Source: Barthelona sp. PCE (Eukaryota). Taken from it: 64,000 nucleotides of DNA. Where the stretch lies: the NCBI GenBank assembly GCA_040285745.1, contig JAUFOR010000002.1:434001-498000 (forward strand). Reading direction: 5' to 3'. Each line of letters begins with the position of its first letter. The first letter of the stretch is position 1. Below the pieces are notes generated by a model. The model worked only from the letters and a program-made list of their open reading frames with translations. It searched no databases and was not told the DNA's origin. The position numbers were made by a program, and so were the translations under genes. Below, one piece after another: positions 17,901 through 59,323 of the stretch.

Positions 17901-18721
17901 GAATTGGAATGAAGGTATGGATAAAGACAGCGGTACTCTATTCTACTATGACCTCTATTAATAACCTTTGTAACATCATTAAAATCATTAATGTTCTCAT
18001 ATATCGATTCTATATTATGCTTGAATGGATCAAAGCGGGGGCCACCACTCACTGAACCATTGATAACCTTGGCGTTGAGAAAAGCTGTTGTGTTGAACAA
18101 AAAATAAGAATTGGGATCTATGTTTGAAGAAATATTCTCACAAAGACCGTCGAGAATCTTTTTCTGCTCTAAACTCGTTGTATACTGCCTTTTGCCGTTG
18201 ACAGAACTTTCAGCTTCGTTGAAAAGACCCTCAACAAGCTCTCGATATTCGTCAGATAAACTGTCGTATATTGGTATAGCGCTTTGGACGTTAAAATTCT
18301 TCTCAATCTTATGGTAGAGTCTAATGCTGTCATCGTCGTCTGTTAGTGGGAATTCTAAACGAGTAAAATGTGTTCTATTGTGATATTCATTTTGCATCTC
18401 ACGCAGGGTCAGTGCCCATTTTGCTCGGTAGACTTCTGGTATACAGCGTGCCGTGTCATTAACAACGGTTAGACAACCAGCATTGTGATACAGTGTCTGA
18501 ACGGTCTTGCTTAATTCCCATGGCATCGGCATGTTTTCAAAAAGCTTTGTGATGGCCAGGGGGAAGTGTTTTAGAGCTCCCACGTAAGTCTTCCTAATAT
18601 CTTTGTAGCGATGTGCGCTTAAATTGCCCTTAGAATCCAGATCTCTACGGATATCTTGCAATAGTGCAGCCTTTGAAGGTCTCTTGGACCCGTGCTTACT
18701 ATTTCGATGGCGTTTAGTCAT
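11972..18721 (-). CDS. PRP8: Pre-mRNA splicing factor Prp8 (divergent, intronless)
   Basis: ENMPMPWE, LHLDYNFNLK..KTLTTKERK, NSKMPNRFPPVVFYAP, WWSPTINRA, FWIDVQLRWGDYD and a C-terminal MPN-like GWMHS. Confidence 0.97.
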   Translation of the reverse strand: MTKRHRNSKHGSKRPSKAALLQDIRRDLDSKGNLSAHRYKDIRKTYVGALKHFPLAITKLFENMPMPWELSKTVQTLYHNAGCLTVVNDTARCIPEVYRAKWALTLREMQNEYHNRTHFTRLEFPLTDDDDSIRLYHKIEKNFNVQSAIPIYDSLSDEYRELVEGLFNEAESSVNGKRQYTTSLEQKKILDGLCENISSNIDPNSYFLFNTTAFLNAKVINGSVSGGPRFDPFKHNIESIYENINDFNDVTKVINRGHSRIEYRCLYPYLHSNSRTHPFFMVDQYRHSLHVNIETDELGFETTLHPQRKANVPKGPKLPFAPLFAEEELEPVKFNLLTLEHKKKTQRQVEQSIVRLHQQHCSPNVGVSTKVAHQRVLKVDAKRALSKEKRKAEELRQDPSTLEFFSQSKFFKHVEMDWLEAAMQLVHQGWNILNLIIHKKKLNFLHLDYNFNLKAIKTLTTKERKRGRLGHMFDIIRELLKFTKFIVDAHIQFRLGLVDSFQLHDAIYTLFLNMGKHTGLYRYKYRVMRQITLFKNYNKIICRMFSDEFYDRKYTGSFEIMGNGFWVEFLREYVFMLRGFNSMLTVYATNFLSRLFEGRDNYRIKTISKARSESHYDLELKLQLERELKDILPPRLHATKIKHVLSHYSEAWRCMRAGVVFRPQLPQPVIELLNAYLEERMEWYQRNTLIERKKLAKGFLYGKKDSEKNSGRLIRLYFLFQQELSNAYLESGPFIAIDQALAIYKGISAIVTRFVDPVAFPPLTYTNDSKILVLAIEALKEQFVVKPVLNQREREELALIDRAFESPSETLNRIKRLLLTQRTFRKVDVTVHDHIDTVDVVYNVDPLEKITDAYIAMYLNYELRRFLPKYSLPVDSVPMPLSVHEFCAEIAGNRSLMSSKSQFSCVCELSVENFFANIDLNLLNKILRLFMDDAIADYITSRCNVEVDHKDSSYLNVVGVLKGFEFSALIGELCGLVLDLLLLGRHTCEEFVSASIEGRPAVSYGIVQHYRRTLDKVYIVCSFTPQEATYLVNSFIHNSDEHTLRNLPSYQSKIIWPVDQRMMMNRVDDFLGRAVFEVFSKRVPKTIATIEFEKSFISVSSPQNPHFNFEMGGFEIRLLPASRIDEVQATDINTNPQWTFNDHSTGESMMYGWLRVSEKAQARFTNRIRRILMTSSATTFMKIASRWNQTLLGFVSYYREAIPNTVQLIDKLIKCENRVQLIIKKGFNSKMPNRFPPVVFYAPREFGGLGMYSIGSVLVPVSDFRFASQTDAGIVAFRSGLNQDSVIPNLYRYVASWQDEITQSRRVWYEHDLRRREAELERRRLTYDDVEDLVDYGVPRVKTLFSSQRSTLLFEFGWRKRQLFSRYTHMRYDPFNWTSYNHDGRLFDIDQYRTDVISSLGGPEVILSHTMFRATHFGKHEGLFWEKQSAFEKTSVFRNLTHAQRRGVNQLSNRRFILWWSPTINRADVYVGFKVQLDLCGVFLHGKIAGLRVAVVELFAGHLWQRVHESLVMDLTQYLNNKLEALDIEKVVQQSIQPRKSYRYEASAADITLNATYKWPFTEPMLMSDVVSTRFDTCESSKFWIDVQLRWGDYDAHDISLFAKQQFLRYTHDGVTKYPSYTGIVIAYDLCYDCYAIYGTFFPGLQQALLTLMRIMHESNTALSVFRERIRNQLSLYNRDHSTTLLSSNNLIEIFNQKLPWLVDESIVYRKALIRTENGNVHSDPMNGALFVFIPTTGELNIRTIHKSAWANMKRLSQIARWKAAEEVSALLKALPSDDLPTEIFSTTKTGLSPLQTRLIDFPNIKLRGSEMQVMFSALLMHPMIGPTIQDATESHIAVYNLYDDWLESWPQDICFIRLCLLLRGIKTSQRSVQTYLTTHSLEVKPGHVWPSLTDAEWIDFEKLLRDIVVDDVAKKMDVSSDAFTAGDIRDIVLGMQIEAPDSIRAKMAEMTEERESTEERIMETVNKSGETLGIKVTTNYETEKAVSRAEWRQRMTESHRFKMQADNIVVGATKAVASLDHPAVELPMPALRQFIKLFDSRVEIGALLYGRIFEDIIRVYAVVLPLQWGDSDSVTIPLAKPNSFVLEQLQCVGWMHSSTVETKEASMHDMLLHRQFIVSGRMPADSVQISISPSCIVSCFSFVPTCLDFFDEVSKATNDILEFDRQYKRFTEAQDSTFERKVLLSTEFSCCFMVPQLSKGFWNANFTSTRQTIIGHTADDEYEVVASIPLDFYAPEHRKTHFFGLSDQ

Positions 18722-22158: not shown

Positions 22159-25100
22159 ATGTCTCAGCCCCCCAAACCCAAGAGACAGGGCAAATACACC
22201 CCAGGGGATTTTTCTCATAAACTAGATATTTTGCCACGTTTGGAAGTTAAAGATACAGGGGAAAACGATGCGCAGCTCGATTTTGATTCACACCTTGTGG
22301 CTCAGCAGAATCCCAAATCAAAGAAACGCACTATTTTTGAAACAGAACCGCGCGTTGAAGTAACACGTTCTAGTTCACGACAAGCAGCGCGTATTGTCTC
22401 GGGACAGTCCGCGGAGATGCGCCGTTTGTCGGTAAACTCTAATGAATCGGCTAGACAACTGGTGCTCATCAATCGATCTGTTTGGATTGCCTGTCGTGAG
22501 CCAAGCATCCGTTTATTTGCTCCAAAAACTGGAAAGCAGAAGCACTTGCTTCCTCTACCTGAGGAACGTCTTTATGCGCGAACATTGTGTTCTCATAATG
22601 ATAGAGTAGTCGTTGGTGGTAGTAATGGGTCTGTATATGTCTTCCATCCGCGGACATACAAGCTCCTTGACAGCAGCTCCTTACATAACGCAGTCATTAA
22701 CACAATCTCATCAACACCTCATGGTCTTTTCACTGGATCTCAGGATTGGTCAGTGCGTCTCAGCGATCAGAGCCTCAGGCAGCTGAGAAAGTGGCAATTT
22801 CAGCAGGCTATTCGAGATATTGAGTATTTCGAAACAGATATTGGACCGATGCTTGCAGTTGCTACCAGTGATGGTGAGCTAGTTGTTCATCGAATTCTCA
22901 CACAGTCCTATCCGATTGATATGGAACCAGTGTGGAAGTTTGAGTTTCCTAATCGTAAGGCTGCAGATGTTCTTATGTTTAGGTTACTACGAGCACGTGG
23001 GGCTAATACTCGAAATTCGCTCAATCTTTTGTTTGCAGGAACAGAGTCTGGCAGAATTTATTCATTTGATGCAGTAACAGGTACGAAATTGGGCGATTTT
23101 CACGCTCATAAGGGTAGAGTATTAGTTCTATGTGGTGTCGGCCCGACTGTATGGTCAGGTGGTATGGATTCTGATATCAAGATATGGGATATTGTCACAA
23201 ATGAACTTATTGACACATGTTCAGCCCATAGCGGTTTTGTCTACTCGCTCTGTCGTGTAGGAAATTGTGTGTGGGCAGGTGCTTCGGATAAAACACTGTC
23301 TGTGTGGCGTATCGATAAGCTGTGGCAACCCATCAAGCGTATCTCACGCATGTGGCGTGTAGATGAAGACGTATCACAGTACAAGCTTGATGATGACGAT
23401 ATTTTAAGCATTATTAGTGGAATTTCTGATACAGAAGACGAGGAACCAGAACCACGCATGATAGTTACACCCGAGCCAGCCCCAAGCTCACCCACACTGG
23501 CATTGCCCTCACTAATGGCTCCATCCTCAATTGACGTTGAAGAGATGAAAAGAGTCAAGGATGAGTTGAAGGTAGCGGAAGAGAGGATTGTGGACTTATT
23601 GGAGGAATTAGAAGAAATGAACAAAATTGATCAATTTGAATCACTTTATAATGCAGTGAATGAGAAAATTAAAGATATTCTGCATAAGCTGTACACTCAG
23701 TCAACAATGTATCTTTCTAAATTGGATGATATTTCAACGAACATCGTTATGTCTCATACAGTAAGTGATTATATAGCTCAAATTGTTCAGATGTCTGAGT
23801 CAGCAAGCGAACAACCATTACAAAATTTGGCAAAGGTCCACTTTAGTATTGCATTATTGTTGCAACACGGTGCTTTGTTGCTGGATAAGATTATTAAAGA
23901 GTCGGGAACGGTGAAGGAGAACGAAGAGAAGAGTTTAGTTCAGATGGAAAAGATCGATGCACTCCAGAAATCAGTTGAAATGAATCACCGACTTGAGAAT
24001 GAATTTGCTACTTTAAAAGCGCATGTTGGTGAAGCAACAGAGGTGCTGCTGAACGTAGACACGATAGATGACGTAGACTCTTCCTTTTTGACCCGAGGCA
24101 ACCCCTTTATTGATGTTGTTGATTCGATCAATTCTTCATTCAGGAAGGTAAACACAAAGTATCAGCAGTTGGAGGCCGAAAAGCGTCTTGTCGAGCTTGA
24201 ACGTGACCAGCTTCGTGAGAACGTGTCACACCAGCAACATATAGTCAAGAACCAGCATGAACGCGTTGATGAATTGGAGAAGAAGCTATCTGCTGCTAGT
24301 TTAGAAGTTGCACAGCTCAGTAACGACGCATTACACGACGAAGAGGACCGTGAGTCCCTGTTGGTTGAGATGGCAGAGCTTCAGCTTAAACTCAAACACA
24401 GTAATTATGATGTTGAGACCACAGCCGCCTCAGTTCAGTATATGGCAAGTGAGATAACTACAATGGCCGAGTCTAATGTCTCTTTCATTGAGGAGATTGA
24501 AGATCTCAAGACAGAAATTGGAATGATGAGGAAACCAGTTCCTACGGAATCAATCGGTGTCTTACATGCAATTGAGACACTTGAGAGCTTCACACAGTAT
24601 CAGGCGGCTTCAATCACGCAACTTGAGATGCATGACACAGAGGAAGAGGAGGAGTCGGAAAACGAAGAAGATATGACTTTGATACAAACGCTGTTAGACG
24701 CTAAGGATGGAGAGATCAATTCACTGAGGGCAGAACTGGACAGTATTAAAGATGCTGTTCCGGAGATATCAGCAAAGGAAGTCAGGACACTACAGTTGGA
24801 GTACGATGACGCTTTGGATAGGCTGGCTGCAATGAAGGATAACAACGAACAGTTGAAGGCACAGGCAACTGATAAGAGGAAGCTAGAGAAGGAGGTCCGT
24901 CAGCTTAACAAGAAGGCAGCTTCGCAGAAGACTGTTCTGGATATCCTCAACGCCGAGATCGAGAAACTGCGCACAAGTAATGAGCAGCTACGCAACGACA
25001 AGGGCGGATTACAAACAGCTCAGCGACGTAACGAGGAGGAAATTGCAGTTTTGGAAAAACAACTGGAATTACTGCGCACTAACAGTGAAGTAGGAGAGCA

Positions 25101-28100
25101 GGCGCCGGATACCAACCACGGTGTTATCGGAGTTGATGAAGACGAGTCAATGGACTACGTTCGTGATCTTCTAGAAGCTAAGGATAGCGAGATTGCACAG
25201 CTACGTCAATCTGGAGAGGTTGCGGTTATGGATGGTACAATAGCAACAGTTCTTGGCGAACTTTCAGCCCAAGCTGCGTTATTACATGTTTTTGAGGAGA
25301 GATCACGTAGCGAAACAGATGAAACAGATAACACTGTTTTAGTAATGGAAAACAAACGACTCATGGACCAGCTTGAAGCAGAACGTGCGTTACACAACGA
25401 AACACTTGCGACGATGGATTCGATACACACAAACACTAAAACTGTTGATTTTGATAGTTTACCTCAATTGGTTGAGGCAAACAACATCATCAGCGAGAAG
25501 AACAGTCAGATAAGCGGAATGCATCGTGAGATAAACGCGTTGAAGACCAGATGTTCTCAACTAGAACAGTCCAGTGCGGTCCGTGATGATCAGCAGCGGA
25601 ACGAGGTTGAACATTTCCAAGGCCTCATTGCAAGTTTACGAGCGAACGTTGTTAAGCAAACACAGGATTGCAGCGCACTCAGAGAAGAGAACGGTCAGCT
25701 GAAGCGTGAGGTTGTGCAGCTGAAATCTGATATCTTGGTTAGTAAGATGCGAACTGATGTGTACATGGAGCCAGTTGTTGTAGAAACAAACTTTGTTTCG
25801 TGTCAGACCGACATTTCTTTTGCAGATGACATGGCTCGCGTTGATGCACTGGAGCGCACTGTTGCAATTTTGTCTGATGATTTGAATCGCGTAGAATCCA
25901 TGAGCAATGTACCCAATCAGGATCAAGAGCAACTGTCCACTCTGAAGAGCACACTTTCCGCGACAAAGAAGCTGTTGGAGGAGGCAGAAGACCAGCTGAA
26001 AGATCAGAAGAATATCAAAGCAGAAACAGTTGCGTTTGTCAATGATCGTTATGATGCGCTGCTTGAATCTTCAAAGAATTGCGAAAACACTCTTAGAAAC
26101 AGCCTAGACGATGCAAGACAGAAGAATGTTGATGTTGCATCTGAGCTTTCAAATACAAAGGTGAAGCTTGCTGAAGTTACAAGGGATCACGCACAGCTTG
26201 AGGCTGATCTTGTAGCTTTGAAGAAGAGGCACATGGACGAGCTTGAAGGAGAAGATAGTATCCTTCAGCAACGGCTCGCATCACTTGATTTGGAGTTATC
26301 ATGTGAGAAGAATAAGATTAAGCAATTGGAGTCAGAAAACAGCGAACTTAAAGAGTTGACGGTGCAGCAAATTCAGCAAATTGATGTGCTAAAGCAGCAG
26401 AATGATTCTATGTCTGAGGATATTAAAACATTAGATGAGAGTATAGTCACACTTGAGACCGAATGCAATGATAAAGATGAAATGTTACACACAGTAGACG
26501 ATGCTATGTCAGCAAATGAAAGAATTCGCAAGGATCTTGAAGACGCTTTGGCTGATGTGGGACATTACAAAGATGCATTTGAAAAATTGACTGTTGAGAA
26601 GAAGGAGCTTGAGACAGAGCTTGGTGAAAGTAGTGAGGCAAAGAATGAGCTTGAACTGAAAGTTATTAGATGTGAAGCCGAGATTGACACACTATTACTG
26701 CAGGCTTCCGATGTTCAGACTGATGAGGCCCTTCGTGTTGGAACTCTGGAACAGAGCATTGCCCAGATGCGCCAGGAAATGGACAAGAAACGTGACCGTA
26801 TTGATGAGTTGGTGAAGAGTATACAGGGTGTACAACAGGAGTTGCATGCAGCTGAAATGGCACATATGGTTGCTATTGAAGCACATGAAGCGAGTGTCAA
26901 TGACGCTCAACACGCTTTGCAGACACTTGAACTCGACAGAACTACTTTATCCCGTCAGTTAGCCGAAAAAAACAAGAGAATAGTGGATCTGAGCGAGAAA
27001 CATTCTCGTATTTTAGATGAAGTGAATGCCACAAAGTTCGCAAATGTTCAACGCATTGAAGAATTGGAGGAAGCCACTGAAGATATGAAGATGGAAAATC
27101 ATTCACTATCTCTTGAAAAACAAAGGTTATCAGCACATTTAGATCATTTACAAAAGCAAAATAATGATCTTAAGTCAGAAAACCGTAAAGCAAAGGCGGA
27201 AATTCACAATTGTAATGCTAACTCTGCATCAAAACTTGATGATTTGAATGGAAAGTTGCAAGATATGGAGTATGAATGTAAGGCATTAGAGCAATCAATG
27301 GAGTTTTCAAAGAAGCGAGTAGCAGAACTGGAGGACGGCATTTCACGTCTGAAGGCCTCAGAGTTGAAGAGCATGGGTGTGATTGAAGAACTGACAGCGG
27401 AAAAGTTGTTGTTATCAAGTGAATTGAGTGATGTTAAGGAGAAGTTGTCTTCCAATGAAGCTGATAACGTTGTTAAAACTGGTGAGTTGGAGAACAAATT
27501 GGCTGCTATGACTGCTGAGCTGGAAAAATTGAATGCTATTTTTGACGCAGCTGAGATTGAAAAGCAGAACGCGTGTGAGGCATTGGACAATACTCGCAAG
27601 TTGTTGAGTGCCTCCGATACAGAGGTAGCTCATATGAAAAAACAGAATGAAAAGTTGCAGAAACAGTGTGATACTATAGAATCTCAATGTAATGATCTAC
27701 AGGCTCAAAGTAACATGTTGGAGTTAGAGCGTGATAGTTTGAATACAAAACATGACCAGTTGGAGGTACAAATTGAAAAGTTAAGTGCAGAGCATGACGA
27801 ACTTGTATCAAGTAGCGATAATACTAAAGCAGAATATGAAGAAATATTAGCTAAGTATGATGAACTTCAGGTACTTTGTGACGTTCTTAAGTCTGAACGC
27901 GATGTCCTTCAATTTAACAGTGATAGTATGAAGTTAAAGCAAGATGAGCTGCACGTACAGTACAAAGATTTAATATCAAAACACACAAATCTTGTGGAAG
28001 AAAACAATGGTCTGAAGACACAGATTATGTTAATGAAGTCACAATACGACGAACTACAGATGCAACAAGACAACTTGATGGCAGAAGTAGCTGAAAAGGA

Positions 28101-29793
28101 GGCTGTATTGGAGGTTAACGATAGCAATCTTGTGAGTATGAATGACAAAATCAAGGTAAAGGATGATAGGATAATTGAGTTGCAGGATATGCTAGAACAA
28201 AGCACAATAGCGAGCAGAGATATGAGTGAAATCAATGAAAAGTTAAATGATCTCACTTCTGAAATTTCTGAACGCGATTCAATCATTGCAAATCTTAAGA
28301 GCGAAGCAGATGATGCTCTTTTGAAGTTAGAAGAACGTGACACTGCTATAGAAATTTTGAATAGAACTATTTCGGATCTTGACAAATGTATTGAGGATCT
28401 TAACAAAGATCTAGGCGTAGAGAAGGAACGATTCGAAACAGCCCAGAATGAAGCACAAAGTTCAATTACTTTACTGAAGAAAACGGTCGAAGAGCATAAG
28501 ATTGCTCGTACAGCCTTAGAAATGACAAATGGTACCCTGAATGAACGCAGCAATGATTCTATTGATCAACTAAATGATGCACAGAATATCGTTCGCGAGC
28601 TTGAAAACAGCGTCAAGGATTTGTCATTTCAATTGGAAAATGTTAGCAACGAGAAGTTTACTGATCTGAAGAAATGGGATGAAGAACGCATGAGGTATGT
28701 TGATCAACTGGCTGCATTTTCAGGTTTAATGGGGGAGTTTGAATTATCCATTGATAGCGTGATTTCTGCTACCAACGCACGTGTAGCACGCATAGGCGAA
28801 GGTTTCAGTTTAGCGCTTTCGAGACCTCTGGTTGACGAATCAGCGCTGGATGAGATTCATAAGCAGTTGATTGCAACAGAAGTCCGTGCAAACAGCGCAG
28901 AGCAGAGCAAAGAGGAGAACGATATATTACGGGATGAGCTACGTTTGCTACATTCAATGTACGATAAGAAAACAGATTATATCACTTGCATTGACACTCT
29001 CATGAATGATGTGGTTGGTCTTTTCAACCATCATCAACATATGAGTGCATCACCCTCACCAAAACCTGTTAAAAGAAGTGAAGTTTCGAAGAAAGATGAT
29101 AATGTGCTGCGGGAGTTGATGAAATTGAAGAGCTCAGCTATCAAGGCATTGGGTCCTAAGAGTATCACAAAATCTAGACGCGCACGCTCAGTTTCCCCAA
29201 AGGTTGAGGCTCATCCGCTTTCTAAGTCGCACACGGTCACACCAAGAGGTGAGAACGGTGGTCTCGTTACGCCAATAGAAATGCCATTGATATCGGACAG
29301 CATTGATATTTGTCCTCCTAGCCCCAATCCATCGGGCATGACCTCTCCTGGTAAAAAGACAAATTTGTCTTTTGAATCACCGATATTTGGTGATTTTAAA
29401 CCGTTCTGTGAGGAGGATGTTTCTTCCTTCCCACAGTACAGACAGAAGTTCATGGCTTATGTTAAGAATATGCTTGATAGTGCAGTTTTACATTTCGAAT
29501 CAAGCAGTGAAATTTTGAATCCTGAATATGTTGAAGAACGATTTACAAGAATTAAGAAGTGTCATAGCGAGAAGCAATCATTATTATTGGACGCCATCGA
29601 GCGAAGCAATCTGAAAATTAACAATATTCAGAAGATTACCAACCTCAAAGATGAAGAAATATGGAGACTTAAGAAGTTACTTAAAATAGTCTCAAAACCA
29701 GAAGTGATACATGAAAATAAGAATTCTATCCTACTTCGTGCACAGAACAAAGCTCTCAAGAAACAGATAGTTAACTTAAAATTGAATGAATAA
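22159..29793 (+). CDS. Giant WD40-repeat plus coiled-coil protein (2544 aa)
   Basis: WD repeats (WSGGMDSDIKIWD, WAGASDKTLSVWR) in the first ~390 aa, then ~1900 aa of heptad-rich E/K/L sequence. Confidence 0.85.
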   Translation: MSQPPKPKRQGKYTPGDFSHKLDILPRLEVKDTGENDAQLDFDSHLVAQQNPKSKKRTIFETEPRVEVTRSSSRQAARIVSGQSAEMRRLSVNSNESARQLVLINRSVWIACREPSIRLFAPKTGKQKHLLPLPEERLYARTLCSHNDRVVVGGSNGSVYVFHPRTYKLLDSSSLHNAVINTISSTPHGLFTGSQDWSVRLSDQSLRQLRKWQFQQAIRDIEYFETDIGPMLAVATSDGELVVHRILTQSYPIDMEPVWKFEFPNRKAADVLMFRLLRARGANTRNSLNLLFAGTESGRIYSFDAVTGTKLGDFHAHKGRVLVLCGVGPTVWSGGMDSDIKIWDIVTNELIDTCSAHSGFVYSLCRVGNCVWAGASDKTLSVWRIDKLWQPIKRISRMWRVDEDVSQYKLDDDDILSIISGISDTEDEEPEPRMIVTPEPAPSSPTLALPSLMAPSSIDVEEMKRVKDELKVAEERIVDLLEELEEMNKIDQFESLYNAVNEKIKDILHKLYTQSTMYLSKLDDISTNIVMSHTVSDYIAQIVQMSESASEQPLQNLAKVHFSIALLLQHGALLLDKIIKESGTVKENEEKSLVQMEKIDALQKSVEMNHRLENEFATLKAHVGEATEVLLNVDTIDDVDSSFLTRGNPFIDVVDSINSSFRKVNTKYQQLEAEKRLVELERDQLRENVSHQQHIVKNQHERVDELEKKLSAASLEVAQLSNDALHDEEDRESLLVEMAELQLKLKHSNYDVETTAASVQYMASEITTMAESNVSFIEEIEDLKTEIGMMRKPVPTESIGVLHAIETLESFTQYQAASITQLEMHDTEEEEESENEEDMTLIQTLLDAKDGEINSLRAELDSIKDAVPEISAKEVRTLQLEYDDALDRLAAMKDNNEQLKAQATDKRKLEKEVRQLNKKAASQKTVLDILNAEIEKLRTSNEQLRNDKGGLQTAQRRNEEEIAVLEKQLELLRTNSEVGEQAPDTNHGVIGVDEDESMDYVRDLLEAKDSEIAQLRQSGEVAVMDGTIATVLGELSAQAALLHVFEERSRSETDETDNTVLVMENKRLMDQLEAERALHNETLATMDSIHTNTKTVDFDSLPQLVEANNIISEKNSQISGMHREINALKTRCSQLEQSSAVRDDQQRNEVEHFQGLIASLRANVVKQTQDCSALREENGQLKREVVQLKSDILVSKMRTDVYMEPVVVETNFVSCQTDISFADDMARVDALERTVAILSDDLNRVESMSNVPNQDQEQLSTLKSTLSATKKLLEEAEDQLKDQKNIKAETVAFVNDRYDALLESSKNCENTLRNSLDDARQKNVDVASELSNTKVKLAEVTRDHAQLEADLVALKKRHMDELEGEDSILQQRLASLDLELSCEKNKIKQLESENSELKELTVQQIQQIDVLKQQNDSMSEDIKTLDESIVTLETECNDKDEMLHTVDDAMSANERIRKDLEDALADVGHYKDAFEKLTVEKKELETELGESSEAKNELELKVIRCEAEIDTLLLQASDVQTDEALRVGTLEQSIAQMRQEMDKKRDRIDELVKSIQGVQQELHAAEMAHMVAIEAHEASVNDAQHALQTLELDRTTLSRQLAEKNKRIVDLSEKHSRILDEVNATKFANVQRIEELEEATEDMKMENHSLSLEKQRLSAHLDHLQKQNNDLKSENRKAKAEIHNCNANSASKLDDLNGKLQDMEYECKALEQSMEFSKKRVAELEDGISRLKASELKSMGVIEELTAEKLLLSSELSDVKEKLSSNEADNVVKTGELENKLAAMTAELEKLNAIFDAAEIEKQNACEALDNTRKLLSASDTEVAHMKKQNEKLQKQCDTIESQCNDLQAQSNMLELERDSLNTKHDQLEVQIEKLSAEHDELVSSSDNTKAEYEEILAKYDELQVLCDVLKSERDVLQFNSDSMKLKQDELHVQYKDLISKHTNLVEENNGLKTQIMLMKSQYDELQMQQDNLMAEVAEKEAVLEVNDSNLVSMNDKIKVKDDRIIELQDMLEQSTIASRDMSEINEKLNDLTSEISERDSIIANLKSEADDALLKLEERDTAIEILNRTISDLDKCIEDLNKDLGVEKERFETAQNEAQSSITLLKKTVEEHKIARTALEMTNGTLNERSNDSIDQLNDAQNIVRELENSVKDLSFQLENVSNEKFTDLKKWDEERMRYVDQLAAFSGLMGEFELSIDSVISATNARVARIGEGFSLALSRPLVDESALDEIHKQLIATEVRANSAEQSKEENDILRDELRLLHSMYDKKTDYITCIDTLMNDVVGLFNHHQHMSASPSPKPVKRSEVSKKDDNVLRELMKLKSSAIKALGPKSITKSRRARSVSPKVEAHPLSKSHTVTPRGENGGLVTPIEMPLISDSIDICPPSPNPSGMTSPGKKTNLSFESPIFGDFKPFCEEDVSSFPQYRQKFMAYVKNMLDSAVLHFESSSEILNPEYVEERFTRIKKCHSEKQSLLLDAIERSNLKINNIQKITNLKDEEIWRLKKLLKIVSKPEVIHENKNSILLRAQNKALKKQIVNLKLNE

Positions 29794-49992: not shown

Positions 49993-50832
49993 ATGCAAGA
50001 CCATAACCCAGTGCAAGCCGACCAGACACAATACGACAAGGATAGTCGTAACTGTGAAGTTCATGGAGATCCGCTTACTTACTTTTGTTTAACCTGTAAT
50101 CTTCTTGTTTGTCCTGAATGTTGTATTCATGGTACCCACTTGGGCCATAACGTTCAAAAACTCACTATTGCTCATGATTATGTGTTGAAAGATTCTGCAT
50201 TATTGGCAGATAACCTTAAGGGAGAAGTTATTGAGTTGCAATCCCGTTTTGACATCCACGAGCAGAACAGGCGAAAGATAATTGAAAATACACGTAGTAT
50301 TAAGGGATCTATGTCGGAAGCTTTCAAGGAAATCAGAAAACATCTTGATGAAAAAGAATTTGAACTATTAAATGCCGCTGATGAATATATGCAAATCGAA
50401 ACATCCAAATTGGAAGTTGTTCTTACCGAATTACGTTCCAGTATTGATGATTTGGAATCTACTATTGATTTATTGCACATCCGTTCTGAGCACCCTGATA
50501 TCTTTGTATTGCTTAAGTTCTATGAGGTGCATAAGCCTCTTATGAGTTCCATCATTGAGAAGTACAGCGAACAAGGAGAGGTCGATGAAGCAGCCATGGC
50601 TACATGTGAGCTTGATGTTACTTTACTTACTTCTGCTATTTCAAAACTTCAAGGACTTCATGAATCAATCAATTCACTTCAGGGTTTGCAACGTAATATT
50701 AGAAATGTACCAAAATCAGTAACAAGAGATCTTAAAATGGATACTGTGAAGCAAACTCCTGCTGCTTATAGTAGTGAAGCTGCTATTGCTAACTTAAGAG
50801 CCAGAAGGAACCAGAGAATGACTGCCCGTTAA
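49993..50832 (+). CDS. B-box zinc finger plus coiled-coil protein
   Basis: CEVH...YFCLTC...VCPEC...HLGH, followed by coiled coil. Confidence 0.85.
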   Translation: MQDHNPVQADQTQYDKDSRNCEVHGDPLTYFCLTCNLLVCPECCIHGTHLGHNVQKLTIAHDYVLKDSALLADNLKGEVIELQSRFDIHEQNRRKIIENTRSIKGSMSEAFKEIRKHLDEKEFELLNAADEYMQIETSKLEVVLTELRSSIDDLESTIDLLHIRSEHPDIFVLLKFYEVHKPLMSSIIEKYSEQGEVDEAAMATCELDVTLLTSAISKLQGLHESINSLQGLQRNIRNVPKSVTRDLKMDTVKQTPAAYSSEAAIANLRARRNQRMTAR

Positions 50833-51197: not shown

Positions 51198-51285
51198 ATG
51201 CTGCACTTTTATCGAAAATTAAGGATTAAAAACCTTCTAAAGTGGAAAGAGGATGTAATTTGATTTGCACGGTTTTTCACAACTG

Positions 51286-52431
51286 ATGGGTTTGAAAGGA
51301 GAGCTCACTGAGGTATTCTCAACGGACGCAAATGACTACGACTATTCAGCGATTGCTTTGAATGCTGAAGGAACAATTCTTGTTTGCGCTGATTTTGACA
51401 ACAATTTGTACTGCTTTAGTGTGAATTTTGATGACGATTCCTGTGAGCTGGAGCCCCAGGTTCAGGCAGAATTGGACGGAGGCATTGCATTGTGCATGTG
51501 TGGTTCAAGTGATGAGAACACCTTCTTTTTAGGTGATAATGAGGGTTGTATTTACATGTGGAACCCAGTGAAGGAGGAGCTTGAAGGAGTTACACAGTTG
51601 GAAGATGAGATTATTATGGATATTCAATTTTGTGATCATCCAGAAGTTGGAGAAATGCTTGTATTCACTGGAACAATGAACGAAATCTGCTACTGGAGTC
51701 TAAAGAAGGGAGAGGCAATTGCTAGTGTTGAATTGCCTGGTTGTGGTTATTGTTTATCTGTTCAAAATGAATATCTCATGTGTGGTGTCGAAGATGATAA
51801 CTATTGTATCATCGATTTGAACACACCTGACGAAATCATGGAAGGGAATGAGCAGAAAATGGCTGTTAAATCAACAGGTTCTTCAATATCATATATTTCA
51901 TGTTGTGCAGTTGATCCTAGTGGGGATTATTTCTATCTAGGTGGTGGTGGCTCCGGCTCAGGTAAGGGTGTCATTATTTACCCTGATGAAAAGCCTCATG
52001 CCTTCTTTGCACAGGGTTCAAGCAACCGTCCTGCCAGTTGTAATGACATGGCAGCATTTATGTTAGAAGATAATTCTGCTTTAGTTACAGTAGGATCATC
52101 AAAACAGTGCTTTATTTGGGGTGTGGAAGATCGTTCAAATATTGCAAAATTCCCCAAAAGCTCTTCCAGTCGTTATACTAGTAGTTCTACTGCATACACA
52201 AAGGTTTTAATCCACCCATGCAACGAGCTTGTTGTTGTTGTTGAAGGAGCAGATCCATCTTCAATGTTGAAAAACAAGAATTTTAGAACCCGTAAAGGAA
52301 AAATTGTCTTGTTGCGTCTAGAAGTTGGAAAGTCAAGAGGAGGAAGTTCTTTTAGCAGTGGTAAAAAATCATTTGGAAATAAGAAATCGGGTTCAAAATT
52401 CGGTAAGAATAAGAACAAACGTCGTTGGTAA
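51286..52431 (+). CDS. WD40-like beta-propeller protein with basic Gly/Lys tail
   Basis: Repeats such as FLGDNEGCIYMWN, FTGTMNEICYWS, TVGSSKQCFIWG. Confidence 0.75.
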   Translation: MGLKGELTEVFSTDANDYDYSAIALNAEGTILVCADFDNNLYCFSVNFDDDSCELEPQVQAELDGGIALCMCGSSDENTFFLGDNEGCIYMWNPVKEELEGVTQLEDEIIMDIQFCDHPEVGEMLVFTGTMNEICYWSLKKGEAIASVELPGCGYCLSVQNEYLMCGVEDDNYCIIDLNTPDEIMEGNEQKMAVKSTGSSISYISCCAVDPSGDYFYLGGGGSGSGKGVIIYPDEKPHAFFAQGSSNRPASCNDMAAFMLEDNSALVTVGSSKQCFIWGVEDRSNIAKFPKSSSSRYTSSSTAYTKVLIHPCNELVVVVEGADPSSMLKNKNFRTRKGKIVLLRLEVGKSRGGSSFSSGKKSFGNKKSGSKFGKNKNKRRW

Positions 52432-52463: not shown

Positions 52464-54074
52464 TTATAATCGCATGGCTTGGCACGCAATAGAAGAATAA
52501 AATCGAACAACCGACTGTTGATCGATTTCACATTTAAATGGTTGAAAACCATCATTGAAAATATTGGTCAGAACTGTTAATTCATTAGTTTTAATATTAT
52601 ATATCAAACAGTCCTCAATTATGCTTATGCAGACCAGAAAATTTTCGTTTATACAGAATTGACAAGGCTTTAAGCTACTTCTAAAAAAATTACCGGATAG
52701 TACATCTTGAACCTTGATTTGATTCAGTTCTGTTTTTGAAATAATACTCAGTGTATTATTTTGGAATGAAAAAGAAATTACATTAAGATTGGAATTTGAA
52801 TAAACAGGATAAAATATAGAATTTTGAAGATCCAAATCATGAGCGAATATTAAAGTAATTGAAATTGGTGAAATTGAATAGGTTTGAAAAGAATTTTCTG
52901 AAGAAAGTATTAGAATATTATTAACAAAAGTACAATTATGACATTTTTGCTTCAAACGTTGATTTGTTATCACTTCTTGTGTTTTAACATCAAATAAGTG
53001 AATAACACTCCTATGTTTACGAATCATATTCGCTACTATTACTAATACATCTTCATTATAAAAAAAGAGATCTGATATATCAAATGAATAGTAATGATTG
53101 TCTAAAATACATGTATCATTGCGAAATACACTAAAGAAATTTTGACAGTAACAACAAATATACAAATCATTAGAATTATGTGGTTTTAACCATTGAATTC
53201 TTTCCAAAGCTAACATTTGTAGATTAATAGTATAATTATCATCATCATTTTTAACAAAAATTGTTGATCCCATTCGTGTTATCAATAAATCATCAGAAAA
53301 AACTAAAATTTTTGATATAGAAGGTATTACTTGCCCAAAAGGAAAAAAACTTTTTGAAAAGTATTTCAATTCTACATTAAGACCATTCATTCTCAGACAA
53401 TAATCAATTGGATTGGGATCTGAGAAATTTGGTGAAGAAAGATGATACATAATACAAGTTGAAGGAATTACTTTTGTGTGTAAAGGATAATCTAAGTAAT
53501 GAAGACTTAAAGAATCGAATTCTAATCTTTTGAAAGCGTTATCTGTGAACACTATAGCGCTTTCTTCTGATAAAAAAATTGAAAAAACATTTTTTAAGTG
53601 AAGTAGAATTCTATTTTCTGTCATGATGAGTAAATGAAGATCAAGCTTATCATAGAAAACAAATTTATCATCTATGAACCACAAATATATTGGGTTTTGT
53701 GAATTGAACTTAAAATTACATCTATAAGAAAGAAAACATTTGTTTTCAACATCAAAAACAGATATTTGATCCTTTGAGCCAACCGGTACCAGTCCGTTGT
53801 GTGGGACACCGACCTTTAAAACGTCTTTAGTTATTAGACATACAGTTTGACCATTTTGGTATTGATATAGTTTTTTTTTGCTCACGTAGTACACAGTGCC
53901 ACTGTCATCGACTGATACGCACATTGGGTCGACAACCGGTACTAAAGTTCGTTGCAAGTTTTGAGTATTGATTTTCACTACTGCTTCTACGCAACAAGAG
54001 CATAAATAATGACCAAAGAACGATTTGGAGCAATTCCCAAAGTGTGTAGACACAATGGGGCGCTCTAATGTCAT
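52464..54074 (-). CDS. Hypothetical AT-rich, beta-strand-rich protein
   Basis: 536-aa stop-free ORF in very AT-rich DNA, unlikely by chance; no family recognised. Confidence 0.65.
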   Translation of the reverse strand: MTLERPIVSTHFGNCSKSFFGHYLCSCCVEAVVKINTQNLQRTLVPVVDPMCVSVDDSGTVYYVSKKKLYQYQNGQTVCLITKDVLKVGVPHNGLVPVGSKDQISVFDVENKCFLSYRCNFKFNSQNPIYLWFIDDKFVFYDKLDLHLLIMTENRILLHLKNVFSIFLSEESAIVFTDNAFKRLEFDSLSLHYLDYPLHTKVIPSTCIMYHLSSPNFSDPNPIDYCLRMNGLNVELKYFSKSFFPFGQVIPSISKILVFSDDLLITRMGSTIFVKNDDDNYTINLQMLALERIQWLKPHNSNDLYICCYCQNFFSVFRNDTCILDNHYYSFDISDLFFYNEDVLVIVANMIRKHRSVIHLFDVKTQEVITNQRLKQKCHNCTFVNNILILSSENSFQTYSISPISITLIFAHDLDLQNSIFYPVYSNSNLNVISFSFQNNTLSIISKTELNQIKVQDVLSGNFFRSSLKPCQFCINENFLVCISIIEDCLIYNIKTNELTVLTNIFNDGFQPFKCEIDQQSVVRFYSSIACQAMRL

Positions 54075-54550: not shown

Positions 54551-57500
54551 TTATTGGAATTCATTCATCCGCTCCTTAACTTGTCTGAGAGTAACACGCT
54601 GTATTTCATGAACATGACAACTTCCATGATGATCGCATCTCGCAGAAAGGCAAACAAAACAAAAACTGCGACTGCATGTGGGACACTTCATGCTCTTGCA
54701 ACCGCTACGATGCTCTACAGGAGTTAAGCAGTTCGGGCAAACACGCACAGATGGCACCCCATCAATTCGATTGAAATCGATGGTTTTGCGTGGTGCATTT
54801 TGAAGACGGTTGTTGAGATCGTCAACATCATCCTGCGTCCATTGCGAAAGTCGCTGTGTGATGAGTAACTTGAACTCCTTGGGCAGGATACCGCGAATAG
54901 CTAGTGGTAGTCCTTCGCGGATACGCAATATGTTGTTGGGCAATCTCAGAGAGTGATCACAGAGAGCGACAGTAGGTAGCATAGTGTCGTCCGGCTGTAG
55001 AATGACGGTGAATGAGTGTAGTTCCGGTGAGCCATTTAACCAGTAAACGAACTGGAGAATGTCCATTGAGTTGAAACCTTGTAGAACTTCTTCTAGTGCA
55101 TCACGCACGTTATTGGGTACCTTGTCATCATATTTAAAGGTAGCAAGCACCTGCTCGGTGGTGAAACGAGGCGGTCCGCACATCATAGATTTGACTTCAG
55201 AGAAAGTGAGAGTAACGCCAAGCTGGGCAGTGAGTTCATGAGCGTTAAACACTGCGTTAACCTTCTTAGACAGCTCCACCCATGGTTCGGATGCGGATTC
55301 ACGGGCGAACTGCAGGAATTCATCAATATTGTCAGCTGTAACCAACCTGTCATCTCCTAAAAGGGAGTTGAAGTTCAGACCCTCTTGATTCAGCATGTTA
55401 AGGATGTACGCCGATTCGGTTGGGAACACCTTGCCAAAGACTTTTCTATCAGAAAGCTTATCGTGATCTTCACTGAGTGCGTTTATCAAAAACTGACCAA
55501 CCTGCAAGTCATCAATTGGTGATTGGAACACAAAGCAGCAGTACAGGAAGCCGCACATGGCTATCAAGGCATCATCTGATGTTTCGGTATTGATTTGAGG
55601 CAAAGAATGATGCTCGAAAATGTAATCAATGAATTGGGGAATTGAGAGTTGTTCCATACCGTATAATGTAATTGAGGCATCGAAGTATTCGGTTCCACTC
55701 ATAAACGAGTTGATATCGCTGAACACAGTCACGAAAAATTCGTCAAAGGTCTGCTCCACTTGTTCAAACTTCATGGTGCTTCCCTCACGATCGTTATCGC
55801 GTAACAGAGCCTGCTTTGTGACAATAAACTGGTTGATCTGACGGCGGATGAGTGTGAGGCGGTCCTGAGCTGCGGGTACATTAGTGTGCCATTCATGACA
55901 GTTAAGCTCGTAAATGGACGGTCTTAGCTGAGGATCTTGGGCTTGGCAGCGCTGGATGATTTCAGAATGCATGCAGTCTTCAGGTAAAACAAGCTGAGCA
56001 ACGTTTGTTCTGTCTTGTGCATAAATGTAGGCAACAGTTTTTCCAAGTGCATAAATATCGCTCAGTAAAGTGTGCGGTTGGCCCATCATAACTTCTTGGG
56101 CCATATAACCAAACGTTCCAACCATAGTGTTACCTCCAATAGTTTGTGAGTTGTCGATGCTTACACCAAAGTCGCATAATTTCAACTTGGGATTTGTTCC
56201 GTCTTTGTTACAATAAACCAGGATGTTCTGTGGCTTTATATCACGCAGAGTGATGCCCTTTGCGTGTATAGAGAAGATACACATCACAAGCTGATGAGCA
56301 AGAGAGTTCTTCGTCTCCTGGTTAACATCAGGAAATGATTCAAGATACTTCTCAAGATCGAACGGTGCACGCTCCAGCTCAATACACACAAACATCATGG
56401 TAGCAGTTCCACGTGACATCTTTGGTACAAACACTACGTTCTTAAGAGTTACTGTGCAAGGGTCTAGCTTGGTCAGAACGCGCAGTTCGCGTCTTATTGC
56501 TTTTATATTATCATCCAGACCGCGCTTCATCCTCTTTGAGACGCAAATACACTTGATAAACAGATCATCCGTGTTCAACGTGCCGTTACCTAATCCAAAA
56601 TCTTGAAGCCCACCATTCAAATAGCTGTCATAACTAATGATCTTAGGAATCGAAGGGAACCTTATTGCTTTAAGATCCAACTCCTCAATTGTCTTGGAAA
56701 GGTCAACTGCTAGTGCCAGTTCACATATAGTTTTTTTGAGCGTTTTGATGTTCTGAGTAACCAGACGAGTCATATATCCCTTTGCTTTTTCAAAATTGAC
56801 ACATTCAGCTTCACTGATCTCCGACGCATGGCGTTCCATTCTCTGTTGCAATGTGTAAAGTCGATCAAAATTCACTGGATGATCAAGAGAATCAAGCTCT
56901 TGCTCTTCCCGAGATTCCTCCAAATCCTTAGCGATACCTTTGATTTGCTTGGAAGATCGCGTAAGAGTGTTGAGTTTGTCAATGAATAAATTCATTACAA
57001 CATGTGAATTTTTCAGATCTTGATCCGAAAGTAAGTGAAAAAGTTCAAAGCTGAAATCAAACGATGTTAACTCTCTAAGTTTTTCGGCAAAAGCTCTCTC
57101 ATTAAGCACCTTTGCGATGGGAAACCGGGAAACAAGCTTGTCAAAGCGAGATGAAAAGGTTGAAGCCAACGTTTCATTAATCTCAAACGCTACAATGATG
57201 TTTCTGAAATCCCTGACGTATGATATGGCCATTTCCAGTTCATCTAAGTGCTTCTCCATTGTCTGCACAGTTGGATCTGAAGATATCCAGTCCAAGAAAG
57301 ACTGCGATGGAACATAGAGTTGTTGGATAACTTCTGCACATTTTTTGCTATACGCAATCAGTTCACCGAACTCCTTGTTGCCTGAATTGGGTACCAATTG
57401 ACTTAATGTATCGAATGTAACCTGGAACTTCACATCCATTTCGGAGAACTTCGCTTGAGTTTTTTTTTCTTGAGCAGTGAGTTTTTCTTGAAAAAATATT

Positions 57501-58762
57501 TTCTGTTCAGCAAGTTTCGAGCGTAAATCATTAATCTTTAGGTTTGCATCAATGATATTGAACCTAGATTCATCATTACACATCATTGTACGACCAAAAC
57601 CAGTGTCGTTATTCCATTCAAGAAGAAGAATTTTTCCACTCTCAAACACTACGTTGAACACAGATTCTGATTCCTTCTCAAATCCAACAACAACACCGCT
57701 GTGTGATTCGTACTCTTTGGTAACTGAATTGGTTTTTGTAACATGAGTCACCTTGGTTGCAAAAAACAATAGATACCCGCTTGAAACTTTAGCAACAAAA
57801 CACTGCCGATCACAAGGAATAACAAATTTCTGATACTTAATATACGAACCTAGAGGTGTATCCAGCCTAAACAAATCCTCTTCCAAGATTTTGATGGTTG
57901 TTGAATATCCAAAACAGTTATTAGCAATAGTTGTAATATGTTTTTGTGACAGAATACTAAATATTTGTGAATCTCCACATTCCATATTGACTGAAAAATA
58001 CTTTTCGTCATGTGAAATATAAATGGACTGCTTTTCACCCTCTACGTTGAATGAACCGCATCCTTGTTTCGTGTTTCTGTTGAACAATTGAACCACAGAA
58101 TTATTAGCAAGGACCATATAATTAGCAGAAATGTCACCTAGAAGCATGGTGCTTCTGTTTAAATTTGGATATCTCTCTTCAGCAGTAGAACCTTGCTCAA
58201 TAAGATCATGAAAGTTTTTTTGTACAGTTCGACAGGAATATCTGTCTATAGTAGTATAAGTAGTAGCTTCTTTAACTAAAAATAATGGGTCATGTAGGAC
58301 GAATTCTCCAAAAACCCTATTACTAGCTGAACTACCATGTTTTAATCTAATATGACCTGAATTATCCTTAATAATGAGACATTGAGCATCAGCCCAGCAT
58401 TTAGTACCAGCAGGAAAAGAAAAGCTTGAAATGCTATTACCCTCCACATCATTCACATTGTATTGATCATTCACTTTGTAAGCAACAACCTGACCATCAA
58501 AGCTGAGGCAACCATGTTTAACCTCACCTTCCACATCAATTGAATTTAATAAACTTAAAGATGGAACACTGAAAAGTTTGATAATTGAGGAACCAGAATT
58601 AGAAGGGTTTGTATGCACAGTGGCCAGAACCTTTTCGTTCTTTGAAACCCAAAACAGATTTAAATATTCCTCTATTGCGATAGTAATTGGTTCAAGACCA
58701 TCAGATTCGTTTTGACGTATAATAGTCGCCTTTCCGCCTTCATTAGCAAATACTTTAATCAT
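54551..58762 (-). CDS. Multidomain protein: propeller-like region, coiled coil, Ser/Thr kinase, HECT domain, RBR-type RING2/Rcat
   Basis: Kinase LRDIKPQN/DFG/GTFGYMAQE/SDIYALG; HECT VTADN, EVKSMMCG, FVYWLNGS, LPTVALC..LRLP; C-terminal CPNC...SGCKSMKCPTC...FCFVC. Confidence 0.85.
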   Translation of the reverse strand: MIKVFANEGGKATIIRQNESDGLEPITIAIEEYLNLFWVSKNEKVLATVHTNPSNSGSSIIKLFSVPSLSLLNSIDVEGEVKHGCLSFDGQVVAYKVNDQYNVNDVEGNSISSFSFPAGTKCWADAQCLIIKDNSGHIRLKHGSSASNRVFGEFVLHDPLFLVKEATTYTTIDRYSCRTVQKNFHDLIEQGSTAEERYPNLNRSTMLLGDISANYMVLANNSVVQLFNRNTKQGCGSFNVEGEKQSIYISHDEKYFSVNMECGDSQIFSILSQKHITTIANNCFGYSTTIKILEEDLFRLDTPLGSYIKYQKFVIPCDRQCFVAKVSSGYLLFFATKVTHVTKTNSVTKEYESHSGVVVGFEKESESVFNVVFESGKILLLEWNNDTGFGRTMMCNDESRFNIIDANLKINDLRSKLAEQKIFFQEKLTAQEKKTQAKFSEMDVKFQVTFDTLSQLVPNSGNKEFGELIAYSKKCAEVIQQLYVPSQSFLDWISSDPTVQTMEKHLDELEMAISYVRDFRNIIVAFEINETLASTFSSRFDKLVSRFPIAKVLNERAFAEKLRELTSFDFSFELFHLLSDQDLKNSHVVMNLFIDKLNTLTRSSKQIKGIAKDLEESREEQELDSLDHPVNFDRLYTLQQRMERHASEISEAECVNFEKAKGYMTRLVTQNIKTLKKTICELALAVDLSKTIEELDLKAIRFPSIPKIISYDSYLNGGLQDFGLGNGTLNTDDLFIKCICVSKRMKRGLDDNIKAIRRELRVLTKLDPCTVTLKNVVFVPKMSRGTATMMFVCIELERAPFDLEKYLESFPDVNQETKNSLAHQLVMCIFSIHAKGITLRDIKPQNILVYCNKDGTNPKLKLCDFGVSIDNSQTIGGNTMVGTFGYMAQEVMMGQPHTLLSDIYALGKTVAYIYAQDRTNVAQLVLPEDCMHSEIIQRCQAQDPQLRPSIYELNCHEWHTNVPAAQDRLTLIRRQINQFIVTKQALLRDNDREGSTMKFEQVEQTFDEFFVTVFSDINSFMSGTEYFDASITLYGMEQLSIPQFIDYIFEHHSLPQINTETSDDALIAMCGFLYCCFVFQSPIDDLQVGQFLINALSEDHDKLSDRKVFGKVFPTESAYILNMLNQEGLNFNSLLGDDRLVTADNIDEFLQFARESASEPWVELSKKVNAVFNAHELTAQLGVTLTFSEVKSMMCGPPRFTTEQVLATFKYDDKVPNNVRDALEEVLQGFNSMDILQFVYWLNGSPELHSFTVILQPDDTMLPTVALCDHSLRLPNNILRIREGLPLAIRGILPKEFKLLITQRLSQWTQDDVDDLNNRLQNAPRKTIDFNRIDGVPSVRVCPNCLTPVEHRSGCKSMKCPTCSRSFCFVCLSARCDHHGSCHVHEIQRVTLRQVKERMNEFQ

Positions 58763-59323
58763 TTTACCAAGAAATATTGTTTGTAATATTAGTGATAAAA
58801 AAGAAAATTGAAAAAAACACAAATTTCCATTATTCCAGTATTTTCGTTGGCTGGTAAGGTGTTATATATATATTTGAGGTGATTTCTGTGTTTACAATAA
58901 GAATAATTGACAAAAAAAAAAATACACTTTTCAATCAGTCATTTTTGCTTTCACTTTCAAGCTACTGGGTTTAAAGTGTGCTCAAAAAATAAAATTACCA
59001 TAAAAAATAGTTCATTCTTTAAAATAGTGTAAAAAAAATTTCTAACTGTGAGTTGTAATTCATTCCTGCAAAAATAAGTAATAAATAAGAAATATGAGCC
59101 AATTAATCAAAGATTAAGCGAAAAAAAAATATGCCTGAAATGCGGTAAAGATGTTATAAATGCAAAGCAAGTTTTTTTAGAATTTCATAATCATATCCAA
59201 AACGCTATGTGGGAAAATAATCTACAATATTGTAATCTTCATCACAAATAAGCATAGGTTATTGAATGTAGTGAATAAAAATTTATTTTGCATTTTCTCC
59301 TTTTTTTCTCCGCATAAAATCCA

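Follow-up and report, generated by a model that had tools for sequence, protein, structure and literature searches.

HECT-type and RING-between-RING (RBR) ubiquitin ligases (E3s) are treated as two separate solutions for passing ubiquitin via a cysteine of the ligase, and, to our knowledge, the HECT module and the RBR-type Rcat (RING2) module normally never occur together in one protein. In RBRs, the ubiquitin-conjugating enzyme (E2) is held by RING1, and we know of no means by which a lone Rcat could receive ubiquitin on its own. Two cysteines working in series are found in the RING-Cys-relay (RCR) E3 MYCBP2/PHR1, in which the RING recruits the E2 and a single tandem-cysteine domain holds both relay cysteines. 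PINK1 and parkin are an example of a kinase that works together with a ligase; they are separate proteins, parkin being a full RBR. Here we analyze a gene within a 64,000-nucleotide stretch of the genome of the flagellate Barthelona sp. PCE (assembly GCA_040285745.1, contig JAUFOR010000002.1, positions 434,001 to 498,000; hereafter, the window), whose product carries a protein kinase, a HECT domain and a lone Rcat in a single chain. With both catalytic modules in one chain and no RING1, a conserved family of such proteins lets one ask, in a testable way, whether a HECT domain can feed an Rcat.

Very divergent HECT domains accompanied by a kinase have been reported from protists, in the GL-Bikonta proteins of Naegleria gruberi and Ectocarpus siliculosus (Grau-Bove et al. 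2013, PMC3673628). The likeness of these proteins to the window protein is one of description alone; unlike the window protein, they are presented in a main text that contains no occurrence of "IBR", and the supplementary tables of that survey may list architectures. As described in its main text, the survey included neither Barthelona nor Kipferlia, the second genus in which we find the family. We found no paper dealing with Kipferlia together with HECT in the open-access literature and bioRxiv, and the words HECT, ubiquitin and kinase do not appear in the main text of the paper on the Barthelona genome (PMC11316075). A preliminary description of the locus, made from the sequence without database searches, knew of no family with this architecture. 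This holds for the HECT–Rcat fusion, no description of which was found in open-access papers and bioRxiv, but not for the combination of a kinase with a divergent HECT, which is already reported in the main text of PMC3673628. What is new is an undescribed architecture, conserved and expanded in two lineages of free-living metamonads, in which a kinase is joined to two E3 catalytic modules that are each known.

The gene is encoded by a single open reading frame (ORF), as first proposed, but the ORF does not end at 56620, the upper limit of the originally given span (54551..56620); it runs about 2.2 kb further, to 58822. A database protein of 1403 residues (P0002) is 100% identical to the ORF and starts at the ATG at 58760-58762, which is the probable true start and gives a product of 1403 residues. 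The nearest database relatives of this protein all come from Barthelona sp. PCE and are annotated as hypothetical. Residue numbers of the window protein (Cys1288, Cys1375 and others) are counted throughout from the TTG of the 1423-codon ORF. The order of elements is a weakly supported propeller, a helical region, the kinase, HECT, a helical linker and Rcat, with the following positions in the window.

54551..58822, minus strand: kinase–HECT–Rcat ORF, 1423 codons from TTG, stop codon at 54551-54553
57563..58762, minus strand: N-terminal region, residues 21-420, possible WD40-like beta-propeller (weak Pfam support)
56603..57562, minus strand: helical charged middle region, residues ~421-740 (by composition; common to paralogs in the family consensus)
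55871..56590, minus strand: protein kinase domain, residues ~745-984 (Pfam Pkinase and catalytic motifs)
55175..55870, minus strand: HECT N-lobe, residues 985-1216 (AlphaFold2 (AF2) model and VIA-align)
54887..55168, minus strand: HECT C-lobe, residues 1219-1312 (AF2 model and HUWE1 profile alignment)
54959..54961, minus strand: Cys1288, at the HECT catalytic-cysteine position (LPTVALC), aligned to the Cys of HUWE1 LPSAHTC
54749..54883, minus strand: linker, residues 1314-1358, a hinge followed by two helices (AF2 model)
54608..54748, minus strand: lone RBR-type Rcat (RING2) zinc finger, residues 1359-1405 (Pfam IBR and PDB RING2 matches)
54698..54700, minus strand: Cys1375, at the Rcat catalytic-cysteine position (SGCKSMKC), aligned to the Cys of ARIH1 GGCNHMVC
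54554..54607, minus strand: C-terminal helix, residues 1406-1423 (AF2 helix at model residues 428-438)

The structural model and profile comparisons indicate that the HECT domain is complete, two-lobed and divergent, spans residues 985–1313 and directly follows the kinase. A profile built from this region only of 10 diverse family members was searched against all PDB sequences and returned 25 matches at E ≤ 10, of which 23, including all of the top 22, are HECT E3s. The best match is HUWE1 (E 5e-5), and the others include HECTD3, AREL1, UBR5, WWP1, HERC6, SMURF1 and Tom1. In the profile search, LPSVALC of the family was aligned onto LPSAHTC of HUWE1, and the C-lobe of HUWE1 was aligned as well. 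Matches to HECT were thus obtained with the family profile but not with Pfam on the window copy, which is too divergent; the Pfam cut-off of 23.9 bits is passed by the paralogs P0008 (28.5) and P0157 (24.8) and by P0160 of Kipferlia (24.2), with several further relatives just below it.

An AF2 model of residues 985–1423 built with 19 family sequences (model residue 1 corresponds to ORF residue 985) has a mean predicted local distance difference test score (pLDDT) of 85.3; the prediction from a single sequence had a pLDDT of 38 and was unusable. Foldseek comparison of the former model with the PDB gave a HECT E3 in every listed row (best, 8.7e-10). VIA-align superimposed model residues 2–329 (ORF 986–1313) on NEDD4L with Z 13.6 and 306 residues aligned. 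For the separate lobes, the N-lobe (model 1–232) matched residues 477–761 of E6AP (8gcr_R) with Z 11.6 and a root-mean-square deviation (rmsd) of 4.2 Å over 221 residues, and the C-lobe (model 235–328) matched the C-lobe of E6AP (7qpb_A) with Z 12.9 and an rmsd of 2.1 Å over 94 residues. With an ESM Atlas model of a Kipferlia homolog, HECT clusters filled 10 of 10 rows, at residues 332–725. The complete-looking HECT of the preliminary description is therefore borne out as a two-lobed fold, whereas its start is not: the domain begins near 55870, ~120 nucleotides upstream of the noted position. The codon given there for the catalytic-position cysteine (54959-54961, LPTVALC) is exact. Taken together, the window protein resembles HECT E3s (NEDD4, WWP, HUWE1, E6AP, UBR5, HECTD3) in its two-lobed fold over ~305 aligned residues (Z 11–13.6), in a C-lobe that superposes at an rmsd of 2.0–2.3 Å and in a cysteine at the LPxAHTC position. 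It differs from them in having Ala-Leu instead of His-Thr before the cysteine, in being missed by Pfam HECT and in the internal position of its HECT, with the linker and Rcat after and the kinase directly before.

The last ~60 residues of the window protein have the cysteine spacing of the Rcat of RBR E3s (ARIH1/HHARI, ARIH2, parkin, Cullin-9, HOIL-1 and RNF217/RNF19-like proteins), with a cysteine at the catalytic position. Pfam IBR matched residues 1356–1398 with E 4e-5, just below its cut-off. A phmmer search of PDB sequences gave 38 matches at E ≤ 1, 34 of them to ARIH1, ARIH2, parkin, Cullin-9 or HOIL-1, and all 34 fall in the last (RING2) finger of these proteins and not in their IBR; the RING2 structure of ARIH1 (1wd2) was matched at E 1.4e-4. 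The search thereby supports the Rcat assignment and, together with it, the position assigned to the catalytic cysteine codon (54698-54700, Cys1375), which was exact. In the window copy, all zinc ligands and both cysteines are kept, and Ser1377 stands in place of the RBR histidine two residues after the catalytic cysteine, a replacement that had been pointed out earlier and is seen here; the histidine is present in five of six Kipferlia fingers. In the whole window protein, CxxC motifs occur solely at 1362, 1380 and 1388, and no RING family of Pfam matched at E ≤ 1. There is therefore no RING1 or IBR in this protein, and the suspicion of a lone Rcat proved right. Unlike RBRs, the window protein lacks RING1 and IBR and has Ser for His; it is not an RBR and carries, of the RBR set, the Rcat module alone. 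An ESM Atlas feature search with a fragment of the window protein gave weak IBR leads (0.75–0.77).

Between the two modules, the pLDDT drops to 65 and 60 at model residues 321–340 and recovers to 84–94 in the linker helices (model residues 332–342 and 346–357) and at the start of the finger. The drop after the C-lobe, followed by confident linker helices, fits a tethered, movable Rcat unit. A complex prediction for HECT (1–335) and Rcat (362–439) as separate chains, made without a family alignment, scored 0.00, which counts neither way.

The distribution of the fusion was analyzed in a search of 1.8 billion representatives, which gave 308 proteins at E ≤ 0.001; counts rest on the best 150 of the 308. 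Among these 150, only 15 cover the HECT part, and all 15 are members of the family. The remaining 135 match the finger alone (query residues 332 onward), and those sampled either have domains of the IBR type or carry the name RNF217-like or RNF19B-like. No Naegleria or Ectocarpus GL-Bikonta sequence is among the best 150 of the 308 matches. A word-indexed profile search for longer proteins found Barthelona paralogs alone. Metagenome scans yielded 111 pattern matches with a single protein and 286 with a five-sequence alignment, with no relative among either set. Among the best 150 of 308 matches, the family is specific to metamonad flagellates, namely Barthelona and Kipferlia.

Barthelona sp. 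PCE has at least 20 family members (the window copy, P0003–P0019, P0033 and P0157) on 7 contigs, and Kipferlia bialata has 7 (P0070 and P0158–P0163) on separate contigs, the records of P0159, P0162 and P0163 being marked partial. A kinase followed by a HECT-like region is common to all 27 proteins. An assembly chimera, a concern of the preliminary description, is rejected: two independent genome projects repeat the same fusion many times, and in Barthelona sp. PCE one real gene encodes the kinase–HECT–Rcat fusion. A quick maximum-likelihood tree, built on 27 rows from the kinase to the protein end, separates the Kipferlia and Barthelona proteins into two clades, each with 100% support in the Shimodaira–Hasegawa-like approximate likelihood ratio test, and the branch between them measures 3.1 changes per site. 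The simplest reading is that one ancestral fused gene expanded separately in each lineage. The conserved core of the family consists of the helical region, kinase, HECT and Rcat, the C-terminal 439 residues (consensus) being conserved best, whereas the N-terminal parts vary between the lineages and within Barthelona. The genome of Barthelona sp. PCE, at 10.2 Mb, is given in PMC11316075 as the smallest reported for a free-living eukaryote; since so small a genome holds at least 20 copies of a ~1400-residue protein, the family is probably important to this organism. The Barthelona paralogs are mostly 1300–1600 residues long (range 762–1613) and occupy roughly 0.8% of the genome, and six of them share one 767-kb contig.

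Both cysteines are conserved in homologs, as the relay first suggested for this locus would predict. All of the 27 proteins except P0013, which stops short of it, extend into the C-lobe, and these 26 fall into four groups.

Both cysteines, 19 proteins: the window copy, P0003-P0011, P0015, P0016, P0157 and six Kipferlia proteins
HECT cysteine kept, protein ends before the finger, 2 proteins: P0012 and P0160
Rcat cysteine alone, 1 protein: P0014, with Val at the HECT position
Neither cysteine, 4 proteins: P0017 and P0018, without a finger; P0019, with zinc cysteines kept; P0033, with a degenerate finger

Both cysteines are thus present in 19 of 26 members. The HECT cysteine is kept in 21 of 26, including all seven Kipferlia proteins, within an LPxxxxC motif that is near-canonical, LPTAH(A/T)C, in three Kipferlia proteins. 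The Rcat cysteine is kept in 20 of the 22 members with a finger, and five of the six Kipferlia fingers read GCNH(M/I)xC, with the histidine retained. This cysteine is not a zinc ligand, and its retention over such a distance therefore argues for a catalytic role; in P0019, the zinc-binding cysteines are present and the catalytic one is absent. The four proteins with neither cysteine form two clades (P0017 with P0018, and P0019 with P0033), so that joint loss must have occurred at least twice. To judge from the sequences, such joint loss fits coupling of the two cysteines better than their independence.

We regard a HECT-to-Rcat ubiquitin relay as the single most likely and most economical reading of the window protein, with a probability of about 0.4. 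Under this reading, E2~ubiquitin would dock on the HECT N-lobe, a site proposed because the protein has no RING1. Cys1288 of the mobile C-lobe would take over the ubiquitin and hand it on, within the same chain, to Cys1375, and the tethered Rcat would discharge it onto the target. The variable N-terminal part (the propeller or the other modules of paralogs) would select targets or location, and the kinase would gate or mark targets. The HECT N-lobe is the sole putative E2-docking element in the chain, and the C-lobe cysteine is the sole possible donor in cis. The HECT domain of the window protein is internal, with ~110 residues (linker, Rcat and helix) following the C-lobe. For Rsp5, PMC3738095 reports that the thioester forms without the -4 Phe and the free C-terminus, that ligation requires both, and that activity suffers from C-terminal tags. 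Given this requirement, an internal HECT may be good at loading ubiquitin but poor at discharging it and need another exit, and a tethered Rcat on a flexible hinge could plausibly serve as that exit route.

The resemblance to MYCBP2/PHR1 is in principle alone, in that two cysteines would pass ubiquitin in series; no homology is claimed. Unlike in that protein, one cysteine would be supplied by a HECT and the other by an unrelated Rcat, and a RING is absent, which places the window protein outside the RCR (MYCBP2-type) class. More tentatively, the family may be seen as a natural HECT/RBR chimera and the first known HECT-initiated two-cysteine relay, in which HECT replaces RING1–IBR and the kinase exerts control. 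If the relay operates, it would be a second kind of cysteine relay beside that of MYCBP2, Rcat would be shown to be a portable "exit" module, and a segment of ~440 residues would provide a compact natural system for studying thioester hand-over, with the fused kinase making the protein a one-chain analogue of kinase-gated ligases. Where the Rcat histidine is lost, in Barthelona, the discharge chemistry might be non-canonical.

Several observations weigh against a relay. The window copy gives no match to Pfam HECT (PF00632) even at E ≤ 1. P0014 has Val in place of the HECT cysteine and a complete Rcat with its cysteine, which excludes a strict relay for the family as a whole, and P0012 and P0160 keep the HECT cysteine and end before any Rcat; to judge from these sequences, each cysteine can, in some members, be kept without the other. 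The Rcat histidine is replaced by Ser, Asn or Met in Barthelona and the HECT histidine of LPxAHTC by Ala, and these losses could mean decaying rather than altered chemistry. Moreover, all characterized HECT E3s known to us transfer ubiquitin to the target straight from the HECT cysteine. This established behavior of HECT domains suggests a ligase in which Cys1288 does all the catalysis and the finger is a non-catalytic zinc module, engaged for example in autoinhibition, in binding ubiquitin or substrate, or in dimerisation. The proteins with a HECT cysteine and no finger (P0012 and P0160), the missing RBR histidine of Barthelona fingers and the failure of the window copy to quite reach the IBR cut-off of Pfam point the same way. 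We nevertheless consider such a ligase unlikely, if worth serious attention. Of 22 fingers, 20 retain the non-ligand Rcat cysteine on the two sides of a branch as long as 3.1 changes per site, the full GCNH is present in five of six Kipferlia fingers, and P0012 and P0160 may be truncated gene models, the records of P0159, P0162 and P0163 being partial. In addition, a C-terminal extension is expected, from the Rsp5 requirements described in PMC3738095, to hinder direct ligation by HECT.

It is also possible that both cysteines take ubiquitin in parallel rather than in series, for instance from different E2s, for different linkage types or for different acceptor chemistry (lysine versus hydroxyl or other nucleophiles). 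The conservation of both cysteines is compatible with this, P0014 on the one hand and P0012 and P0160 on the other suggest that each site can persist alone, and the absent histidine of the Barthelona Rcat hints at unusual discharge chemistry. We rate two such independent sites as distinctly improbable: an Rcat with neither RING1 nor a recognizable E2-docking element would depend on the HECT-bound E2, and the joint loss of both cysteines in two clades fits coupling better. A ligase that works through Rcat alone, with HECT reduced to an E2-docking scaffold in place of RING1–IBR and Cys1288 dispensable, would explain P0014, which has an intact Rcat and no HECT cysteine. P0014 lies on a long branch (0.91) of the tree and could be inactive, whereas the HECT cysteine is retained within a recognizable LPxxxxC in 21 of 26 members and in 7 of 7 from Kipferlia, which makes an Rcat-only ligase very unlikely. 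Finally, the E3 modules of the window copy might be catalytically dead, leaving a signaling kinase scaffold with mere interaction surfaces. The strong divergence of HECT, which leaves the window copy without a Pfam match, and the degeneration of HECT, Rcat or kinase in several paralogs would be in keeping with this, and human G2E3 is cited in PMC3673628 as a non-functional divergent HECT. We give this the smallest chance of the readings considered, since neither cysteine and no zinc ligand is missing from the window copy, conservation within the family is highest in the C-terminal 439 residues, and P0007 and P0016, with dead kinases, still have both cysteines.

The kinase domain was placed at ~56620–55900 by the preliminary description, in agreement with a Pfam Pkinase match at residues 760–937 (E 2.4e-23; 83.3 bits, cut-off 31.7). 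The catalytic residues are present (Lys757, Asp861, Asn866 and DFG at 884–886), with HRD reading LRD (His to Leu). A profile search with a whole-protein alignment of the family was dominated by kinases, the best matches in the PDB being StkP, TTK, RAD53 and PLK1, and the kinase of the family is of the Ser/Thr type. Like the PINK1–parkin pair, the window protein couples a kinase to an Rcat-bearing ligase; unlike that pair, it does so in one chain, and no similarity of its kinase to PINK1 was seen among the best PDB kinase matches. P0007 and P0016 lack the catalytic kinase Asp, P0007 lacking DFG as well, and yet both keep the two ligase cysteines, which argues for selection on the ligase part in its own right. 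Conversely, P0017 and P0018 keep the kinase motifs and have lost the HECT cysteine and the finger. From this pattern, kinase activity looks uncoupled from the ligase part. In four of seven Kipferlia paralogs (P0070 and P0158–P0160), DFG reads DFD, an unusual variant of the kinase magnesium-binding motif, and HRD/HKD and the catalytic loop are canonical.

The propeller mentioned earlier finds, in the N-terminal region, weak, sub-threshold Pfam support and is not a firm assignment. Three Pfam propeller families match at E 0.0013–0.067, far below their cut-offs, and residues 21–441 have no match among PDB sequences; clearer propeller matches were obtained with the paralog P0015. In the middle region (~421–740), no Pfam family was matched and E, K, Q, R and L make up 34–43% per 100 residues, and this region is probably a coiled coil. 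The coiled-coil region of P0005 contains an in-frame tandem repeat with a unit of ~30 residues in ~4 copies and is longer than that of its near-twin P0006. The N-terminal ~280 residues of P0007 include, by eye, a long hydrophobic stretch like several membrane-spanning helices, which replaces the N-terminal region of the other paralogs; P0007 may be a membrane-anchored version of the ligase.

The window as a whole is compact, intron-poor eukaryotic sequence with long ORFs nearly end to end, among them Prp8, [FeFe]-hydrogenase, a tubulin-tyrosine-ligase-like protein, NOG1 and Dna2. The occurrence of [FeFe]-hydrogenase and Prp8 as uninterrupted ORFs is in keeping with a eukaryote that is anaerobic, has few introns and retains a spliceosome. 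The following features were recorded.

11972-18721, minus strand: full-length Prp8, single uninterrupted ORF
22159-29793, plus strand: WD40/beta-propeller giant of 2544 residues
47961-49790, minus strand: long-form [FeFe]-hydrogenase with N-terminal 2Fe-2S and 4Fe-4S domains, single uninterrupted ORF
49993-50832, plus strand: protein of 279 residues with a single B-box zinc finger (Pfam E 1.7e-9) followed by an apparent coiled coil
51265-52431, plus strand: WD40/beta-propeller protein of 388 residues with a Lys/Ser/Gly-rich tail
52464-54074, minus strand: 536-residue ORF directly downstream of the fusion gene, matching no Pfam family

No RING was detected in the B-box protein (49993-50832), which resembles a TRIM protein without its RING. 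The ORF directly downstream of the fusion gene falls where the GC content of the window is lowest (0.31, versus ~0.40 elsewhere).

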